DNA from: Candidatus Tayloriibacteriota bacterium
GTDB lineage: Bacteria > Patescibacteriota > Minisyncoccia > Phycocordibacterales > PALSA-1337
Assembly (NCBI GenBank): GCA_028286665.1
Contig: JAQBRD010000016.1
Coordinates: 1 to 59,784 of the forward strand
Reading direction: 5' to 3'
DNA length: 59,784 nt
Program-made: the position numbers and the translations under genes
Shown here: positions 29,697 through 36,839 of the stretch, one piece after another
How positions within the stretch are numbered: the stretch's first letter is position 1
How the letters are laid out: every line of letters starts with the position of its first letter
Notes under the pieces: model-generated
Database searches by the model: none
What the model saw: the letters and a program-made list of their open reading frames with translations, nothing else
What the model was told of the DNA's origin: nothing

Positions 29697-30086
29697 ATGT
29701 TACGCGTAAAGACAAAAATCGGAAAAAGCGCAATTGAGGGCATAGGACTGATAGCCGATCAGTTCATTCCGAAAGGAACGATAACTTGGCAATATGATCC
29801 TCGTTTCGATATTTCGTATGATGAAAATGAATTGAAGGAGTTGCCTGATTTTCTTCAAAGCCAATTTTCAAAATATTCTTATTTCGATCATGATCTGAAG
29901 AAATACATACTATGCTCCGATGATCAGAGATTTATTAATCATTCAGATGCTCCGAATGTCAAATCGACCCCTGAGAAAGATGTGTCCGTACAGGATATTC
30001 AGCCTGGAGAAGAGATTACCTGCGATTATACCCACTATGAGCATGACTGGTTTGAGCGTCGAGGAATAAAGAAAGGCTTCAAATAG
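29697..30086 (+). CDS. minimal SET-domain protein (putative protein lysine methyltransferase)
   Basis: GIGLIADQFIPKGT, RFINHSDAPNV and GEEITCDYTHY are SET-domain core motifs. 129 aa. Confidence 0.8.
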   Translation: MLRVKTKIGKSAIEGIGLIADQFIPKGTITWQYDPRFDISYDENELKELPDFLQSQFSKYSYFDHDLKKYILCSDDQRFINHSDAPNVKSTPEKDVSVQDIQPGEEITCDYTHYEHDWFERRGIKKGFK

Positions 30087-31222: not shown

Positions 31223-31252
31223 AAAAGAAAACTGCAGGATAGATCCTGCAGT
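31223..31252 (-). terminator. intrinsic terminator after 31284..31934 (minus strand)
   Basis: CTGCAGGAtagaTCCTGCAG hairpin with an A-rich run on the plus side, which is a U-run on the minus transcript. Confidence 0.65.
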
Positions 31253-31283
31253 TTCGCGTATTTAGGGGGCATCAACCCCACTC

Positions 31284-31934
31284 TTATCTGATTGTGCAAA
31301 CGGCGCAATCATCGCAGGCGCCTCCGCCTCTGCATCTGTCGCAATTAGCCTTCTTTCCTTCCCAATTCCCCGACAGCTTTCCGAATATCCGGCGGGCGAC
31401 GGGAGCGATCGGAGTCACTTTGGCCGCCTCGACCGCACGATTCTCCTTCGTGAACGGGTTGTGGTGGATGAAGTATCCGAAGTGCTCGTTGCAGAACTTC
31501 GCATACTCCCGGGTGAAGATGATGAACGTGTGCCACGCTTCATCGATCATGGGCGACGGAGAGTATCCGTGCTTTCCGGTGTTCGTCCCGCAGATATACA
31601 GGAACATGAGCATGTCCTTGAAGAGGCGGTTCGCCTCGCGTTTGGACAGCTTCAATTCCTCCTGGAGGCGTTCGACGAGCGGTGGAAAGCGATATGCCAT
31701 CACTTCCTCTCTCGAGCGCATCTCCTGGATCGGAGGCTTGTTGCTGGTTGTCTTGCCGTCGGTATAACATTTTCCGCAACTACTGCATCTGTCACTATGC
31801 GGCAACGCGCCTGATTTTTTCCCCGCACTTGGAGGCGGGCTCTTGCAGTCAGTGCTGCATATTGCGCCAGCCAGTGAGGGATTCCTTCGCACTCCTGCAT
31901 GCTGAGGCTTTCGCTCAGCTTGGATATTTTTCAT
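31284..31934 (-). CDS. Cys-rich protein of unknown function, paralogue A (D..WH...Y..FC....G.FIHH.P core)
   Basis: ATG 31934 is preceded by the AGAGGA SD (the ORF opens at 31988). The core is about 60% identical by eye to 32664..33233. Cys clusters: CSTDC, CSSCGKC, CDRCRGGGACDDCAVC. Confidence 0.7.
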   Translation of the reverse strand: MKNIQAERKPQHAGVRRNPSLAGAICSTDCKSPPPSAGKKSGALPHSDRCSSCGKCYTDGKTTSNKPPIQEMRSREEVMAYRFPPLVERLQEELKLSKREANRLFKDMLMFLYICGTNTGKHGYSPSPMIDEAWHTFIIFTREYAKFCNEHFGYFIHHNPFTKENRAVEAAKVTPIAPVARRIFGKLSGNWEGKKANCDRCRGGGACDDCAVCTIR

Positions 31935-32041
31935 TTGTTGTCCTCTCTTTGTTTCAGCAGAAAAATTCAATGACCGATCTACCTGCATTCCATCAAGGTT
32001 CTGCCTGTGAAAATAGTATTATAAAACTATGATTTGTCAAG

Positions 32042-32590
32042 TTACTTCTTGATGAGCACCACCTCAAATACATGCCAATATTTCAACCCTTCTTTAATGG
32101 TATCTCCCATTCCTTCGTATTGATTAAAATTGCGCAGCTTAGCATTGGGTATCTCTGAAACAAACTTTTTTATTTCTTCAAGATCCCATATATGCCAATT
32201 AGAACGATCTGCCCAAGCATCTCTGTCACCGATGACATTGAAGATGACAACTCCACCAGAAACGATACCATCAACCATATCCTGAATGACTTTTTTTGCA
32301 TCCTCCTTGGATAAAAATTGAAGTGAAAATGAAGCGATGATCAAGCTGTAGTAATTCTTCTTAATTGAAAAATGTTCAATTTTGCTCTCAAGCACTTCAA
32401 TGTTGGAGTTATTTTTTTTGATAGCGTCCAAAGATGATGATGCGTGGTCTACAGCCTGAACATCAAATCCTTCATCGGCTATAAACAAAGTATCAAATCC
32501 TTTGCCGCATCCCAAGTCTAAAGCAGCACCCTTTGGAGTGGCAAAAGAATTTTCCTTGATCAGTTTTGTTATGATGTATTTAAATGCCAT
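32042..32590 (-). CDS. class-I SAM-dependent methyltransferase (small, TehB-like size)
   Basis: Motif I ALDLGCGKGFDTLFIA, then DVQAVD and GGVVIF. The gene is visibly AT-rich. Confidence 0.85.
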   Translation of the reverse strand: MAFKYIITKLIKENSFATPKGAALDLGCGKGFDTLFIADEGFDVQAVDHASSSLDAIKKNNSNIEVLESKIEHFSIKKNYYSLIIASFSLQFLSKEDAKKVIQDMVDGIVSGGVVIFNVIGDRDAWADRSNWHIWDLEEIKKFVSEIPNAKLRNFNQYEGMGDTIKEGLKYWHVFEVVLIKK

Positions 32591-32663
32591 GTATTTGCTT
32601 AATTAAAAAGCTGGCTATTCTTTCTTCAAATAGCCAGCTTGTGAATTCGGTCCTCACTCGAAG

Positions 32664-33233
32664 TCATGGACAACCGCAGTTGCCATCGCATGTGCAGATA
32701 GCATAGCTATCCCCTTTTGAATTCCAGTTATCCGAGAGTTCTTTCCCGAAAACTCGGGCAGCAATCTTGCTGGCCGGCCTCGAATTTTTCACATCTTGTT
32801 CGCGGGTCTCCTTTGTGAAAGGGTTGTGATGAATGAAGAATCCGAAGTTTGTCTCGCAGAACTTGGCATATTCTTTCGTAAAGACGATAAAATTATGCCA
32901 CGCTTCGTCAATTTTCTTTGACGGAGAGAGTCCGAATTTGGTGGTGTTTGTTGCGCAGAGGTAAAGAAACTTCACCAAATCTGCTACCAACTCCTCAGCT
33001 TCCTTTTTGGAGATTTTGAGTTCTTCCTCCAATCTCTCCACTAAGGCTGGGAAACGGTAGGCAAGCACTTCCTGCTTGCTGCGCATTTCCTTAACGGGGG
33101 GTTTGGTAATTACCTGGCCGCAACCGCTTTGGCAATCATGGCAGGAACCTCCACCACACAACGCTGTTTTCTGCTTGATTTTACCATGAGCAGCTCTGGC
33201 TTCACCACTTAGTCCTAACAATGTGCTTTTCAT
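32664..33233 (-). CDS. Cys-rich protein of unknown function, paralogue B
   Basis: CGGGSCHDCQSGCG ... KPPVKEMRSKQEVLAYRFPALVERLEEELKISKKEA ... IDEAWHNFIVFTKEYAKFCETNFGFFIHHNPFTKE ... CTCDGNCGCP. Confidence 0.75.
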   Translation of the reverse strand: MKSTLLGLSGEARAAHGKIKQKTALCGGGSCHDCQSGCGQVITKPPVKEMRSKQEVLAYRFPALVERLEEELKISKKEAEELVADLVKFLYLCATNTTKFGLSPSKKIDEAWHNFIVFTKEYAKFCETNFGFFIHHNPFTKETREQDVKNSRPASKIAARVFGKELSDNWNSKGDSYAICTCDGNCGCP

Positions 33234-33440
33234 TTTTTCTAACCGATCTTGTTTCTTATAGAATCATGTTGAGAGGTCATATGTTCCCATCAACATTTCC
33301 ATAAGTCAGCGAAATTCGCTGAAAACTGCACCTGAAGCTGCTTATAAATAGCATGAGGTAAAGTTTCCAACGAATCTCTCTAGCTAAAGAATATAACAAA
33401 TTGACAACATGTCAAGGTCGCCTGTTGATAACATTATTGC

Positions 33441-36400
33441 CTAGATAACCACATTCACCAGCCTTCCCTTCACGATGATGACTTTCTTCACCGGCTTGTC
33501 GCCGATCCATTTCTTGATTTCAGAGATGGCGAGGGCGCGCGCTTCGAGGTCGGTGTTGCCGGCGTTCGTTTCGGATTCGAAGGTCGCGCGGACTTTGCCG
33601 TTCACCTGGACGATGATCTCGACGGTCGATTCGGCGAGCTTGGCTGCGTCGAAGACCGGCCACGCTGAAACATGGATCGATTCTTTGTGCTTCAATTTCG
33701 CCTGCCAGATCTCGTCGGCGACATGCGGTGCGAATGGCGCGAGGAGCTTGAGGAGCGTTTCATACTGGCCTTTCGATACCGTTGTCTCCCGCTCGAGCTC
33801 GTTCACTGCGATCATCATGGTGCTGATGGCCGTGTTGAAGCGCATCGCGTCGATGTCTTCGGTCACCTTCTTGATAGTCTTGTGGATGAGGGCCTCGATC
33901 TTCGCGGCGTTGCCTCCGATGATGATCTCAGCTGCGGTGACCTTCTCCTGAAGTCGCCAGACTCGCTCGATGAAGCGGCGGGAACCGATGGCGTTGTTCG
34001 TGCTCCACGCAGCCTGCTGGTCGAACGGACCGATGAACATTTCGTACACGCGGAGCGAGTCAGCCCCGATGTTCTTGATGATTTCATCCGGATTCACCAC
34101 ATTTCCCCATCGCTTGCTCATCTTGCGTCCGTCTTCGGCCATGATGAGGCCGACATGCTGGAGCTTCTTGAACGGCTCGATAGTCGTCACGACGCCGATG
34201 TCATAGAGGAACTTGTGCCAGAAGCGCGCATATATCAGATGTCGTGTCGCATGCTCAGCGCCGCCGACATAGAGGTCGACCGGTGCCCAGTAATGCTCTT
34301 TCTTCGAATCAGCGAAGGTTTTCTTGTTCTTCGGATCCATATAGCGGAGATAGTACCAGCATGAACCTGCCCATTGCGGCATGGTGTTGGTCTCGCGCTT
34401 GCCGAGACCTTTGCATTGCGGACATTTCACATTGACCCATTCTTCGATCGCGGCGAGCGGAGATTCGCCGGTGCCGGTCGGTTCGTAGAATTTCACCCGA
34501 GGGAGCTTCACCGGGAGATCTTTTTCAGGAACAGCGACGATGCCGCACTTCTCGCAGTGGATGATCGGGATAGGCTCGCCCCAATAGCGCTGGCGGGAGA
34601 AGACCCATGGTCGGAGCTTGTAATTCACTTTGCGCGTCGCGTAGCCCTTCTGCACGAGATGGTCGATGATGTCGCTGCGGACTTCTGACCATTCGCGTCC
34701 CGCGAATTCTGCGGGTTCAGTCAGGATGCCGTTCTTCACCGGAGGCTTGTCCTCGATGCCGTGCGCGCGGTTCCAAGCGATGACGAGCGCTTCTCGGTTG
34801 AGGAATTTCGACACTTCTTCAGACGAAAGCCACACTGCATCGTGCAGCGCTTTCTCCGATTCCGAGGTTTCCTTTCGATCTCCGTTCTTTAATTTGAAAA
34901 GAGCCGGCTGGAAATGCGCGAATCGATTCTCTTTCTTCACGATATGATAAAACTGCGCATGGAGCTTGCCGCCAAGGATCTTCACGAACTCAGGATTCGC
35001 ATACCCGGTCTCTTCGACTATCTCGCGGACGCCTGCAGCCGCAGGACCTTCATTGCCCTCGATGCCGCCGATGACGAAGCCCTTCCAGTCGACTGCCTTC
35101 GTGCTGAGGCAGAGATATTTGTCTTCTGACCAGTGCTTCACGACGCACATGACCGCATTTCGTTCTACATACGGAGCTTCCGGACGGACAGCATCTTCTC
35201 CTTCAGTGGTCTTGATGAGCTTCTCTGCGACCGGATGAAGCGGAAGATCGTATTTCTTTGCGAACGCATAGTCGCGCTCATCGTGCGCCGAGCAATTCAC
35301 CATGCCGGTGCCGTAGTCAGCCAAGACGTATGAAGCGATCCAGATCGGCAAGTCGCGACCGGTTCCTGCGAAATTCTCGATGTATCGGCCGGTGAACATC
35401 CCTTCCATGTCCTTGTCGATGTCGAAGCGGTTCGCGGCTTTCTTCGCCTTGATCTTCTCGACGAATTCGAGGACTGCCTTCTCGTTCTTCGTTCCCTTTA
35501 TGAGTTCAGCGACGAGCGGATGCTCAGGCGCGATGACGGTAAAAGTCTCCGCACAGTAGGTCTGAGGCACGGAGTTGTACATCTCGACGAGGATGCCGAG
35601 GTCTTTGATCTTGCACATGAAATTGACGCCTTCGCTGCGGCCGATCCAGTTCTTCTGGAGTTCCTTGATGGATTCGGGCCAGTCGAGGAGCGGCTTGTCG
35701 GCGGCTGCCTCTATCTTCGCGAGCTCCGCATCGCTCATATTGAGGCGCTGCATCCACACATCGAGCTCTGCGCAGGTAAAATTGTCGTGATTGAGCTTCT
35801 TCGGATCGAGCCAGACCGGCGCATGCTTCGCCTTCTCTTCGGCGCCGATCGGAGCCTGCGCATCGTCGATCAATTCGAAATGGATCGCATTCGAATATGC
35901 GACTCGGTTCTCGCCCTTGTGCGCTGCATAGTATTCGCCTTTGACGATGCCTCCGAGGACTCTGATGAATTTGAGATTCTTGTAGCCTGTCTCCTCGAGG
36001 ACTTCGCGGCGGGCTGCTTCGACGATATCCTCGCCTTCCTCAACGCCGCCGATGACGAAGCCTGTCCATGGGAATTTCTTCCACTTGATGCAGAGGATCT
36101 TGCCGTTCTTCGGATTCACGACGAGGGCATGAACGGTCTTTCGCTCGACCGATTTCTTGCCGGCGAGCGGCGGGTTCTTCCGGTCGACGAGATGCGGAAT
36201 ATCATCCCGATTCTTCGCATCGAGATCCTTGAGCATTCGATCTGCATAATCAGTGATCTTGAGGATCCACTGGCGCATCATTTTCTTCTCGACGGGCGTG
36301 CCGCAGCGTTCGCACTTGCCGTCCTCGACGTCTTCGTTCGCAAGGCCTGTCTTGTCGACTGGGCACCAGTTGATCGGCTCGAATGATTCGTATGCGAGCC

Positions 36401-36839
36401 CTCGCTTGAAGAGCTGCACGAATATCCACTGCGTCCATTTGTAGTATTCGGGATCGGTCGTGTTCACTTCTCGAGTCCAGTCATAGTCGAAGCCGATGTT
36501 CTCGAGCTGTTCCTTGAAATGCGCGACATTTTTCTTTACGGCGTCAGCCGGATTCGTCTTCATCTTGATCGCGTAATTCTCTGCAGGCAGGCCGAAAGCA
36601 TCGAAGCCCATCGGATGGAGGACTTCATGGCCCTGCATGCGTTTCATGCGCGAGACGATGTCGGTTGCGATATAGCCTTTCGGATGCCCGACATGGAGAC
36701 CCTCACCGGACGGATACGGGAACATGTCGAGGACGTAGAATTTCTTCTTCGCGCTATCGTCGCGCGTTCTGTAGATCTTCTTCGATGCCCAATTTTTCTG
36801 CCATTTCTTCTCGATTTTTGAGTGGTCGTATTGCTCCAT
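33441..36839 (-). CDS. leuS: leucine--tRNA ligase with two inserted Nudix-hydrolase domains
   Basis: HIGH (LHVGHPKGY), Zn finger CPVDK...CERCG, NWIGRSEG, VIAPEHPL, SAHDERD, SRQRYWGEPIP, KMSKR. In addition there are two perfect Nudix boxes, at nt 35982-36050 and 35001-35069. Confidence 0.95.
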   Translation of the reverse strand: MEQYDHSKIEKKWQKNWASKKIYRTRDDSAKKKFYVLDMFPYPSGEGLHVGHPKGYIATDIVSRMKRMQGHEVLHPMGFDAFGLPAENYAIKMKTNPADAVKKNVAHFKEQLENIGFDYDWTREVNTTDPEYYKWTQWIFVQLFKRGLAYESFEPINWCPVDKTGLANEDVEDGKCERCGTPVEKKMMRQWILKITDYADRMLKDLDAKNRDDIPHLVDRKNPPLAGKKSVERKTVHALVVNPKNGKILCIKWKKFPWTGFVIGGVEEGEDIVEAARREVLEETGYKNLKFIRVLGGIVKGEYYAAHKGENRVAYSNAIHFELIDDAQAPIGAEEKAKHAPVWLDPKKLNHDNFTCAELDVWMQRLNMSDAELAKIEAAADKPLLDWPESIKELQKNWIGRSEGVNFMCKIKDLGILVEMYNSVPQTYCAETFTVIAPEHPLVAELIKGTKNEKAVLEFVEKIKAKKAANRFDIDKDMEGMFTGRYIENFAGTGRDLPIWIASYVLADYGTGMVNCSAHDERDYAFAKKYDLPLHPVAEKLIKTTEGEDAVRPEAPYVERNAVMCVVKHWSEDKYLCLSTKAVDWKGFVIGGIEGNEGPAAAGVREIVEETGYANPEFVKILGGKLHAQFYHIVKKENRFAHFQPALFKLKNGDRKETSESEKALHDAVWLSSEEVSKFLNREALVIAWNRAHGIEDKPPVKNGILTEPAEFAGREWSEVRSDIIDHLVQKGYATRKVNYKLRPWVFSRQRYWGEPIPIIHCEKCGIVAVPEKDLPVKLPRVKFYEPTGTGESPLAAIEEWVNVKCPQCKGLGKRETNTMPQWAGSCWYYLRYMDPKNKKTFADSKKEHYWAPVDLYVGGAEHATRHLIYARFWHKFLYDIGVVTTIEPFKKLQHVGLIMAEDGRKMSKRWGNVVNPDEIIKNIGADSLRVYEMFIGPFDQQAAWSTNNAIGSRRFIERVWRLQEKVTAAEIIIGGNAAKIEALIHKTIKKVTEDIDAMRFNTAISTMMIAVNELERETTVSKGQYETLLKLLAPFAPHVADEIWQAKLKHKESIHVSAWPVFDAAKLAESTVEIIVQVNGKVRATFESETNAGNTDLEARALAISEIKKWIGDKPVKKVIIVKGRLVNVVI

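Follow-up and report, generated by a model that had tools for sequence, protein, structure and literature searches.

Two Cys-rich PF27765 proteins and a TehB-like methyltransferase encoded side by side in Candidatus Tayloriibacteriota, and the gene partnerships of their family

The described proteins closest to those discussed here are the plant glycine-rich domain proteins (GRDPs), about 800 aa long, which combine a DUF1399 domain (PF07173) with a Cys/Gly-rich segment of consensus [CG]GGGCGG[GC]. Bacterial PF27765 proteins are likewise built from a domain and a Cys/Gly segment, although they measure only about 150-230 aa, and the RNP-1 motif is a feature that sets the plant GRDPs apart from them. 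We know of no catalytic activity for any GRDP-like domain. For the enzyme encoded at this locus, the nearest described relatives are the TehB proteins (PDB 2xva and 3m70), which are about 180-200 aa long. A further comparison, by functional analogy only, is offered by the borosin OphMA, which acts with the S9 peptidase OphP, and by the plant BURP-domain burpitide cyclases, all of which are self-modifying fused RiPP precursors.

The locus belongs to a 59,784-nucleotide stretch of a Candidatus Tayloriibacteriota contig, called the window hereafter. Following the minus strand, it consists of a PF27765 gene (copy B, 32664-33233), a gene for a SAM-dependent methyltransferase (MTase, 32042-32590) and a second PF27765 gene (copy A, 31284-31934). 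An earlier sequence-only reading had placed three open reading frames at these positions, and an ORF check found them all, on the minus strand. Judged from its sequence, the locus appears to be a self-contained three-gene module with promoter-like and terminator-like sites of its own. The best explanation that we can offer for it, plausible though short of probable, is that the PF27765 domain has its own Cys-rich arm as substrate or working partner, and that the MTase modifies the PF27765 protein.

The PF27765 domain and its relation to GRDPs

Both window proteins (P0001 and P0004) and all 66 retrieved homologues carry the precomputed tag PF27765.1, and a family profile built from 129 members recognizes copy A and copy B with E values of 9.6e-56 and 1.6e-52, respectively. 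The family is already catalogued, with a Pfam entry of its own (PF27765, UCP032817-like), and amounts to about 8,500 clusters at 50% identity. The two proteins had been described as lacking an established function, and this description stands: hmmscan of the family against NCBIfam, PHROGs, PADLOC and a Pfam copy without the PF27765 model gave no real match, searches of the PDB by sequence, profile and fold returned no solved relative, and the literature contained nothing relevant on UCP032817/PF27765, on the E. coli module mentioned below, or on TehB together with Cys-rich proteins. Rather than assigning the pair to a well-characterised family, the profile searches led to PF27765, which is uncharacterised. 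Weak matches to MqsA, HU, DUF3791 and rSAM_RiPP_SSH (E>0.01) were taken as chance, and DinB, HD, ferritin and hemerythrin-type folds were excluded as close relatives because the PDB searches were empty.

Members of the family occur in CPR bacteria, Proteobacteria, Actinobacteria, plasmids and phages, and matches on Ralstonia megaplasmids comprise 105 records that are unannotated in PLSDB. Extra Pfam domains were not found in the longer members. A defence or anti-defence role, prompted by the mobile-element contexts, was dropped, as no evidence supported it.

According to the AF2 models, PF27765 proteins consist of an all-alpha domain of ~125 residues with flexible, disordered arms rich in Cys, Gly, Ser and Asp. 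The signature D-x2-W-H, Y-x3-C and G-x3-H-H-x-P, together with LSxNW at the end of the domain, is invariant or nearly so in the alignments, both copies included. In copy B numbering, the invariant residues are D109, W112, H113, Y122, H136 and P138, and the near-invariant ones are C126, G131, H135 and W170.

The resemblance to DUF1399/GRDP proteins that the sequence-only reading had pointed out holds at the level of the fold, where Foldseek gives a probability of 1.0 for the two models, but not at the level of the sequence, where the PF07173 model is not reached. With hmmscan, neither copy matched PF07173 (gathering score 22.7 bits) at E<=1, and just 1 of 129 relatives touches the model (E=0.1). 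A weak sequence bridge is provided by a P. savastanoi homologue, which scores 18.8 bits (E=0.0028) against the same gathering score and links the two families through a common WH...Y..C...H-type motif region. One RefSeq record calls the E. coli homologue 'glycine-rich domain-containing protein'.

Foldseek searches of BFVD matched both copies to A0A3G5A0N6, 'Glycine-rich domain-containing protein-like', with E=8.3e-5 and TM(target) 0.64 for copy A, E=4.4e-4 and TM(target) 0.67 for copy B, and probability 1.0 for each. The best superposition on a giant-virus GRDP-like protein, in which predicted models are compared on both sides, reaches TM 0.67 with an rmsd of 3.6 Å over 128 columns. On the strength of these models, the PF27765 domain has the same predicted fold as the GRDP-like/DUF1399 proteins, to which it is remotely related.

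Layout of the three-gene locus

Copy B is a protein of 189 aa (32664..33233, minus strand, as are all features described below). Its start is placed at 33233, and the M50 start given in the database is considered too short because the motif KPPV.EMRS and the N-terminal LGLSGEARAAHGK are conserved in homologues. The N-terminal Cys cluster, C26-x4-C-x2-C-x3-C38 (33120..33158), falls in a predicted disordered linker (pLDDT ~50); it is not found in the close homologue P0007, though the flanking N-terminal peptide is common to both. The all-alpha domain (residues 44-170, 32724..33104), defined by alignments, the AF2 model (core pLDDT above 90) and the GRDP-like fold match, is followed by the C-terminal Cys-rich tail NSKGDSYAICTCDGNCGCP (32667..32723, 4 Cys), whose motif is conserved in homologues. 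Copy B carries the canonical tail of its subfamily, AICTCDGNCGCP, and the pattern [AS]IC[TD]x[DAK]G[ND]CGCP is also kept in P0002, P0003 and P0005-P0008.

For copy A (P0004; 31284..31934), the coordinates given earlier are right, although the product is 216 aa long and not 217. The reading frame is open up to 31988 (234 aa), and the start is assigned to the ATG at 31934, ahead of which stands AGAGAGGA as ribosome-binding site. The N-terminal Cys clusters CSTDC ... CSSCGKC (31767..31859) belong to a disordered extension (pLDDT 50-60), the conserved domain spans 31362..31739, and the tail, NCDRCRGGGACDDCAVCTIR, is divergent and contains 5 Cys. As for copy B, the AF2 model has a core with pLDDT above 90, and both termini are disordered.

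BLASTP aligns the two copies with E=1e-64 and 45% identity over 208 columns, and their cores (residues 84-209 of the 234-aa reading frame of A, 44-170 of B) are identical at 80 of 127 positions (63%), in line with the ~60% estimated beforehand. They are true paralogues, as had been claimed, and the Cys clusters reported at both termini of each are all present. A recent tandem duplication is ruled out, because the third base matches in just 34 of the 80 codons for identical residues; by this codon comparison, the duplication is old and the paralogues anciently diverged. What sets both apart from the rest of the family is the additional Cys clusters at their N-termini; copy A further stands out by its non-canonical tail.

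The predicted expression signals are distributed over the whole module. A promoter-like site, TTGACA-16-TATTCT (33388..33415), which agrees with the consensus in 10/12 positions of the scan, lies upstream of copy B. The gap between copy B and the MTase gene contains a hairpin with a 13-bp GC-rich stem and a T-run (32608..32640; dG -22.8, z -4.1), a predicted terminator or attenuator. A second predicted promoter-like site, TTGACA-16-TACTAT (32013..32040), is found immediately 3' of the MTase stop and upstream of copy A, and the module ends with an intrinsic-terminator-like hairpin having a 12-bp stem and a T-run (31228..31255; dG -28.7, z -4.1). Copy B is cut off from the MTase gene by a terminator-like hairpin and copy A has a promoter-like site of its own, which rules out a tight operon; the predicted hairpin and internal promoters suggest instead that the genes are transcribed separately. 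The hairpin after the PF27765 gene is kept in 10 loci, with counterparts of the copy B/MTase hairpin located 3' of the PF27765 gene in L001, L007, L015, L017, L018, L019, L022, L034 and L041, and such a position is compatible with a high substrate:enzyme expression ratio. According to searches of Rfam, neither the window module nor any of 15 related loci contains a riboswitch or other regulatory RNA, and the single match to a frameshift site, being below threshold, was put down to chance.

The composition of the three genes differs as had been noted, with a GC3 of 0.67 for copy A, which is host-like, 0.52 for copy B and 0.38 for the MTase gene, compared to 0.62-0.73 for the housekeeping neighbours. 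The atypical GC3 of the MTase gene suggests a separate history, and this, like the separate transcription units, would fit an alternative that we regard as improbable: the PF27765 protein would be a small non-enzymatic protein, a regulator, adaptor or mobile-element cargo with structural Zn or Fe-S Cys clusters, and the MTase would either be co-inherited or act elsewhere, on a small molecule, an RNA or another protein, with no more than a functional or regulatory connection to its neighbours. The numerous solitary family genes in integrative elements, phages and plasmids also agree with this alternative. Neither PADLOC nor PHROGs has a match for the family, however, and the invariant Asp/His/His/Tyr set resembles a ligand or catalytic site more than a scaffold.

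The methyltransferase and other gene partners

The middle gene (32042..32590), which is AT-rich, encodes a protein of 182 aa, a size similar to that of TehB, and its identification as a class-I SAM-dependent methyltransferase was supported by Pfam (TehB, 1e-13; Methyltransf_25, 7e-13). TehB is its top match in Pfam, NCBIfam and the PDB. The Pfam TehB score of 51.4 bits exceeds the cut-off of 20.4, whereas the scores against the NCBIfam TehB equivalogs (50.6-59.8 bits) are far below their cut-offs of 218-303. The SAM-binding half aligns with TehB (profile against PDB 2xva, E=1.2e-14, positions 17-115), while the C-terminal, substrate half is unlike TehB: the alignment ends at position 115 of 182, and the subfamily has conserved residues of its own in this half, namely, W126, G162, T164, K170, W172 and H173. 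A PADLOC match to 'mad2' reflects generic methyltransferase similarity.

The gene neighbourhoods were surveyed in ~45 locus types, a sample found with a narrow alignment and so biased to IDEAWH-type relatives. In 13 of the 28 informative locus types, from CPR lineages and Acidobacteria, a TehB-like MTase gene lies <=150 bp from the family gene, usually with a terminator-like hairpin between the two; in L016 and L023, the gap or overlap of the two genes is 4 bp. Two further loci, one of them from a Pseudomonadota MAG, have the MTase directly behind a GNAT, and none was found elsewhere in 266 kb of flanks. The linkage to a methyltransferase is therefore conserved across several phyla, as the sequence-only reading had asked to see, and the pairing of PF27765 with the MTase is real. 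The bracketing of the enzyme by two copies, on which that reading was centred, exists here but was seen in no other locus, the layout that recurs among relatives being one PF27765 gene followed by the MTase gene.

These data also bear on co-inheritance with a non-enzymatic protein. The identities of family protein and MTase correlate only moderately in a mirror-tree comparison (r about 0.45-0.48), for which shared phylogeny could account, and co-divergence of this extent, moderate at most, would suit two genes without a direct functional bond, as would the MTase linkage of a member that has no Cys. Against this stands the recurrence of the adjacency across phyla amid very different flanking genes, with cases in which the two genes overlap.

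No single partner enzyme is universal, and a modifying enzyme is absent from about half of the loci. Partners in some lineages are GNAT, MTase and S9 peptidase genes, and in some a radical-SAM (rSAM) enzyme; some relatives have an ABC exporter, with or without a GT4, and some a C39-ABC together with 2OG oxygenases. In E. coli, 7.9-kb plasmids, for which NZ_CP023847 is an example, combine the family gene with an ABC exporter and a JmjC hydroxylase gene (88 of 5,426 complete genomes). Overall, exporters or peptidases are found near the family gene in E. coli, Brucella, Agrobacterium, Xanthomonadales, L018, L022 and L025. Some family genes lie near CadD/ArsR, and some near TelA-like and sulfur-transferase genes.

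The relationship to TehB raises the alternative, an unlikely one in our estimate, that the locus handles soft metals, metalloids or chalcogens. The Cys arms and the His/Asp site would bind Zn, Cu(I), Cd, As(III), Te(IV), Se(IV) or persulfide, the MTase would methylate the bound chalcogen or metalloid as in a split ArsM/TehB-like system, and the ABC exporters of other lineages would expel the conjugates. That the nearest solved and curated relatives of the MTase are TehB proteins speaks for it, and so do the CxxC, CxC and CxxxC spacings, which are metallothionein- or knuckle-like, the location of the clusters on either or both sides of the domain with extra ones in some lineages, as might be expected of arms or of added capacity, and the CadD/ArsR and TelA-like/sulfur-transferase contexts. 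These contexts, however, are isolated cases in transposon-rich DNA, the TehB equivalog cut-offs are missed widely, and the substrate half of TehB fails to align. Moreover, GNAT, GT4, JmjC, S9 and rSAM partners are unexpected for metal detoxification, and no metal-responsive regulator or riboswitch was found adjoining the module.

The Cys-rich arms and what the domain may do with them

Across the family, the C-terminal tails are short (median 26 aa), rich in Cys, Gly, Ser and Asp, with Thr also abundant, and they typically contain 3-4 Cys, mostly spaced by 2-5 residues. Cys makes up 14% of the tail and 1.6% of the domain body, and the motif C-x-[PG]-[SD]-x-[ND]-C was seen 32 times versus 0.3 in shuffles. 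By their dense CxC, CxxC and CxxxC spacings, the tails qualify in sequence as metallothionein-like Cys clusters. Metal or metalloid binding, redox chemistry and a modified-peptide substrate, to which the sequence-only reading had linked the Cys clusters, are all kept as candidate roles. The tail sequence varies among subfamilies and is kept within each, and tandem paralogues have near-identical domains with different ends. Conservation of the Cys clusters, which the earlier reading had made a point of, is family-wide for the C-terminal ones, whereas the N-terminal ones occur in about 8% of relatives and are lineage-specific. Cys tails are missing in P0023, in the Vibrio and Aureibacter members, and in L020 and L024. 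The C-terminal tail as obligatory methyl acceptor is ruled out because, among the MTase-linked members, L023 lacks any Cys cluster and L015 has one at the N-terminus only. The AF2 models dock the tail onto the domain without confidence.

The combination of a folded domain and a short variable segment in one polypeptide recalls OphMA and the BURP-domain cyclases, as does the presence, in some lineages, of S9 prolyl-oligopeptidase-family genes, tailoring enzymes and exporters near PF27765. The family is unrelated to both in sequence and fold, and differs from them in that the Cys segment is N-terminal or internal in some members. This analogy leads to a sharper version of the own-arm explanation, which we consider doubtful, namely, that PF27765 proteins are autocatalytic RiPP-like precursors in which one polypeptide contains both a peptide-modifying domain and the Cys-rich core peptide on which it acts. 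The Cys residues of the tail would be converted to cross-links or heterocycles. Enzymes encoded nearby would then tailor the product by methylation, acetylation, glycosylation or hydroxylation, its release would fall to S9 or C39 peptidases, and ABC transporters would export it, possibly as a bacteriocin or metallophore.

Several features agree with such precursors. Tailoring enzymes and exporters change around an unchanging domain, and the tails, with their Cys, Ser, Thr and Gly, stop 1-4 residues past the last Cys. The genes are carried on plasmids or MGEs, the hairpin 3' of the gene is typical for precursor genes, loci with multiple paralogues exist, this window included, and self-sufficiency of the protein would account for the solitary genes. 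Other features are difficult to reconcile with precursors: the window module has no adjoining protease or exporter, tandem fusions of the domain retain an internal tail, the Cys clusters of some members are N-terminal, and in a recent Agrobacterium paralogue pair the N-terminal linker diverges faster than the tail, which is fairly well kept. Furthermore, the plant relatives are large and intracellular, and GRDP-like domains are without known catalytic activity.

The tentative explanation given at the outset, that the domain acts on or with its own arm, is broader. The domain would be the part that does the work and stays the same, with the Cys arm as its intramolecular partner; the arm would supply a set of ligands or, folding back onto the His/Asp/Tyr/Cys site, serve as substrate. 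Neighbouring enzymes that differ from lineage to lineage would then act on the PF27765 protein. In the window, as in roughly half of the related loci, this enzyme would be the MTase, whose likeliest reaction would be the transfer of a methyl group to a thiol(ate) or other nucleophile, located either on the arm or in the domain site. One MTase would serve both paralogues, each produced in excess from its own transcription unit. In other lineages, acetylating, glycosylating, hydroxylating, radical-SAM and S9/C39 proteolytic enzymes and ABC exporters would replace it, and this variety of partners suggests that the Cys-rich segment is further tailored there and sometimes released and exported. The explanation is supported by the recurrent MTase adjacency, by the residues that the MTase subfamily conserves in its substrate half, by the hairpin kept after the family gene, by the non-random Cys motif of the tails, by the differing ends of tandem paralogues and by the fact that the non-MTase partners all have protein- or peptide-modifying or export functions, the exporter-linked members bearing Cys/Gly tails; plant GRDPs, too, join their domain to a Cys/Gly-rich segment. 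It is weakened by the members without Cys tails, L023 among them although MTase-linked, by the roughly 50% of loci in which no modifying enzyme is nearby, by the separate transcription of the genes, by the moderate mirror-tree correlation and by the low confidence with which AF2 docks the tail.

A bolder proposal, and in our view an unlikely one, would make PF27765 a new class of self-acting domain, which alters its own Cys arm chemically or loads it with metal and in bacteria gives rise to a new family of peptide products; the same would then extend to the GRDP/DUF1399 superfamily. If this were true, these would be ribosomal, Cys-derived peptides, bacteriocin- or metallophore-like, that are tailored by enzymes and exported by ABC transporters.

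PF27765 is a large family, of about 8,500 clusters, with a fold link to plant and giant-virus GRDPs, yet it has no literature. In the window, the gene that most often accompanies the family is met in a compact and insulated setting, in which one enzyme is common to two different Cys-rich variants; the E. coli plasmid version opens a genetic approach in a model organism. A biochemical result on the window module, whatever its outcome, would be the first handle of this kind on domains of the DUF1399/GRDP type.

Gene order and transcription signals of the module

The module lies on the minus strand and consists of copy B (32664-33233, 189 aa), a SAM methyltransferase (MTase; 32042-32590, 182 aa) and copy A (31284-31934, 216 aa, in an ORF that is open as far as 31988), placed as the sequence-only reading had them when the ORFs were checked. 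Copies A and B are paralogues (BLASTP, E=1e-64), and the likeness of their cores, judged by eye as about 60%, came to 63% (80 of 127 residues identical). Their duplication is old, because their nucleotide identity is 62% and the third base is common to only 34 of the 80 codons for identical residues. For copy A, the most likely start is the ATG at 31934, with AGAGAGGA ahead of it. Copy B, judged from conservation, starts at 33233 and not at M50 of the database gene call (P0001), because homologues retain both KPPV.EMRS and the N-terminal peptide LGLSGEARAAHGK, whose counterpart in one of them, P0007, is LGLTGEARVAHRK. Residues 7-18 of copy B (33180-33215) form a short peptide of the type SG[KE](V/A)A[HR]xS, which is found upstream of a variable linker in 8 of 211 family members (copy B and seven others).

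The compositional contrast within the module was also confirmed, with GC3 values of 0.67 for copy A, 0.38 for the MTase and 0.52 for copy B; copy A is akin to the genes for leucyl-tRNA synthetase (LeuRS, 0.73), HisKA (0.62) and AdoMetDC (0.63). On the opposite strand, 1.2 kb from the module, a 129-aa SET-domain protein (29697-30086, plus strand; Pfam SET, 1e-13) is encoded with a GC3 of 0.385, atypically low like that of the MTase (0.377); the two genes may have been acquired jointly, unless the match is a coincidence. The LeuRS (33441-36839, minus strand; 1,132 aa) has an unusual architecture for an aminoacyl-tRNA synthetase, containing two inserted NUDIX-domain stretches (Pfam, E=4.4e-25), the first at residues 233-351, and a second Nudix-box-like segment near residue 600. 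ARAGORN predicted neither tRNA nor tmRNA genes in the whole 59.8-kb window (1-59784).

All signals of the module are on the minus strand. Promoter-like sites are predicted ahead of copy B (33415-33388) and behind the MTase stop, ahead of copy A (32040-32013); a 13-bp hairpin with a T-run occupies the interval between copy B and the MTase (32640-32608; dG -22.8, z -4.1), and a strong terminator-like hairpin is predicted to close the module (31255-31228). In related loci, a GC-rich hairpin with a T-run also stands directly 3' of the family gene, before the MTase in L001, L007, L015, L019, L034 and L041 and before a GNAT gene in L017, L018 and L022, with z values of -2.4 to -6.2 and, in several cases, a TATACTATA-like box behind it. 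The conserved design is thus a family gene followed by a terminator or attenuator and then by an enzyme gene, and the genes do not form a tight operon. A riboswitch was not detected.

A catalogued family with a remote relation to GRDP-like proteins

An hmmscan-type check against local Pfam (which had no PF27765 model), NCBIfam, PHROGs and PADLOC returned nothing significant and no well-characterised family for either copy, in line with the unknown function first ascribed to them. In the protein database, both copies and every homologue carry the tag PF27765 ('UCP032817-like'), a recent Pfam entry, and a literature search gave no paper naming UCP032817 or PF27765. The window proteins are new members of this catalogued, wholly uncharacterised family. 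A word-indexed search recovered only about 10 close relatives; an exhaustive profile search gave 8,568 clusters (50% identity) at E<=1e-3 and 2,206 at E<=1e-10. In copy B numbering, W112, Y122, H136 and P138 never vary among 129 diverse members, and conservation is at least 90% at D85, D109, H113, C126, G131, H135 and W170.

In AlphaFold models, each copy has an all-alpha core of about 125 residues modelled at pLDDT above 90, and disordered Cys-rich termini at either end. No solved structure matched by sequence, profile or fold (best Foldseek E against the PDB, 3). Against predicted viral structures, both models matched giant-virus 'Glycine-rich domain-containing protein-like' (GRDP-like) proteins (probability 1.0 in both cases; E=4e-4 and 8e-5; TM up to 0.67; rmsd 3.6 Å across 128 columns). 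By sequence, the window proteins do not match Pfam GRDP-like (PF07173, DUF1399) significantly; a Pseudomonas savastanoi plasmid homologue that scores 1e-15 with our family profile reaches E=0.003 with PF07173, below the Pfam threshold, and an E. coli homologue is called 'glycine-rich domain-containing protein' in one RefSeq record. The resemblance to DUF1399 that had been proposed from sequence therefore holds as a remote, fold-level relationship and not as family membership. The DUF1399 literature found consists of plant phenotype studies only; plant GRDP2 combines DUF1399 with a Cys/Gly-rich segment of consensus [CG]GGGCGG[GC] (PMC4299439), and so resembles the family in having domain and segment in one protein. 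To our knowledge, this fold-level link, the family-MTase pairing and the family-wide Cys-tail architecture are not described in the literature searched.

The methyltransferase and other partners

The middle gene (METHYLTRANSFERASE) does encode a class-I SAM methyltransferase, its top matches being TehB (Pfam, 1e-13; PDB 3m70, 2xva). It is not a TehB equivalog, scoring 50-60 bits with the NCBIfam TehB models against cut-offs of 218-303. A profile built from 12 family-linked MTases aligns to TehB over the SAM-binding half only (positions 17-115), and the C-terminal half, unlike that of TehB, has its own conserved W126, G162, T164, K170, W172 and H173.

Surveying neighbourhoods, as had been suggested, demonstrated that the linkage recurs. 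The survey covered 34 distinct genomic and metagenomic locus types, 28 of which have 700 bp or more of sequence downstream of the family gene; a homologue of the window MTase lies within 150 bp of that gene in 13 of the 28, and in two more a class-I MTase directly follows a GNAT. Across 266 kb of flanks, the MTase had no further match. Loci with the linkage belong to Saccharibacteria, Parcubacteria, Paceibacteria, unclassified CPR MAGs and one Acidobacteriaceae MAG, with differing flanking genes, and L021, one of the pair in which a GNAT comes before the MTase, is from a Pseudomonadota MAG. The family gene usually precedes the MTase; two loci are convergent, L025 has the MTase upstream, and in two loci the genes have a 4-bp gap or overlap between them. 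Only the window, among the loci examined, has a second family gene behind the MTase. Pairwise identities of family proteins and MTases correlate moderately (r about 0.45-0.48). The TehB-like MTase is the dominant partner within the branch of the window.

Across the family, the neighbours, when present, are almost always enzymes of group transfer, oxidation or proteolysis, or exporters. In CPR and a Pseudomonadota MAG, a GNAT comes after the family gene, and behind it either a class-I MTase (L017, L021) or an S9 prolyl-oligopeptidase-family hydrolase (L018, L022); L025 has the order MTase, family gene, S9. The family genes at L018 7929-8411, L021 632-1282 and L022 1618-2100 encode a nearly identical tail, KIPGSCGPGVCGASTNCQ, with the same downstream GNAT, in MAGs labelled Patescibacteria, Paceibacterota and Pseudomonadota, which suggests horizontal cassette transfer or mis-binning. 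Microbial-mat contigs have two tandem family genes, then a Sel1-repeat protein and then a radical-SAM enzyme, adjoined by ArdC and an integrase, and in a Xanthomonadales MAG the downstream genes encode a methyltransferase, two 2OG oxygenases and an ABC exporter with a C39 peptidase. Rhizobium has a family gene with a GT4 glycosyltransferase, and Agrobacterium (plasmid pAtCFBP6625a, L063 3405-4641) two tandem paralogues, then GT4 and an ABC transporter; in Rhodococcus an AlkB-like 2OG oxygenase is upstream, with CadD/ArsR nearby. In Brucella pituitosa the family gene (tail SCAGCGGQGGGGGGCSHCSACKDDG) precedes an ABC exporter. The E. coli module joins a family gene with a Cys/Gly tail (GSVCGCSGKGCGAGCSCNSR) to genes for an ABC exporter and a JmjC_2 hydroxylase. 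Of 5,426 complete genomes, 88 have it, never on chromosomes and only on mobilisable plasmids of about 7.9 kb (NZ_CP124464.1, L052 4896-8121; also NZ_CP023847.1 and others); it looks microcin-like, and no description of it was found in the searched literature.

These partners bear on a reading in which protein and MTase handle metal(loid)s or chalcogens together. The TehB similarity and the flexible position of the Cys clusters speak for it, but the GNAT, GT4, JmjC and S9 partners do not fit and the MTase fails TehB-specific criteria; we consider it unlikely. Many family genes stand alone in integrative elements, in phage-like regions or among housekeeping genes. Such copies on mobile elements, together with the separate transcription units, would suit a small structural Zn or Fe-S protein linked indirectly to the MTase, an explanation that we consider doubtful and that does not account for the cross-phylum adjacency.

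The Cys-rich arm as a possible substrate

In the 150 best profile hits of the family search, the domain ends with a near-invariant LSxNW, followed by a tail of median 26 residues, in which 14% of residues are Cys (1.6% in the domain body). Tails usually contain 3-4 Cys, the last 1-4 residues from the C-terminus, and are rich in Gly, Ser and Asp. They are not random low-complexity sequence: C-x-[PG]-[SD]-x-[ND]-C was counted 32 times where shuffled tails give 0.3, and [ST]TNC 36 times where they give 0.4. The tail of copy B is the canonical one for its subfamily, [AS]IC[TD]x[DAK]G[ND]CGCP; that of copy A differs (CxxC-x5-CxxC-x2-C). In the Agrobacterium pair, which are recent paralogues, the domains are identical at 113 of 118 positions with 21 synonymous-only codon differences, the tails keep all Cys and differ at 7 of 27 aligned positions (six substitutions, one gap), and the N-terminal linkers share 16 of 55 residues (29%). 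The sole family match in the viral contig collection, a 346-aa protein on a 167-kb contig (IMG/VR UViG_3300021479_000006, L051 4911-5951), combines a hydrophobic segment with a long tail rich in Ser and Cys (SSCSSCSSKSSCSSSS...).

N-terminal Cys clusters are confined to about 8% of members. A C-terminal tail is present in 11 of the 13 MTase-linked proteins; in L015 the cluster is N-terminal and L023 has none. One MTase-linked Saccharibacteria protein has its cluster, LTCTGTCGDCETG, solely at the N-terminus. The segment can also be internal, as the tandem fusions P0010 and P0049 keep one behind each domain, and it is absent from P0023, from L020 and L024, and from Vibrio and Aureibacter members. 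A sharper version of the reading given below makes the protein an autocatalytic, RiPP-like precursor: its Cys segment, once modified, would be tailored and, in some lineages, set free for export. This accounts for the variety of partners and the exporters; N-terminal or internal segments, the lack of a protease and exporter in the window, and the large, intracellular plant relatives fit it poorly, and we consider it improbable.

The constant element of the family is the domain, with its conserved polar constellation, usually accompanied by a flexible Cys-rich arm. From this constancy, the arm, the functions of the neighbours and the dominance of the MTase, we tentatively infer that the domain could act on or with its own arm and the MTase on the family protein. 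The family domain would then work on or with its Cys-rich arm, the MTase would act on the family protein, and copies A and B would be alternative substrates, each expressed from its own unit.
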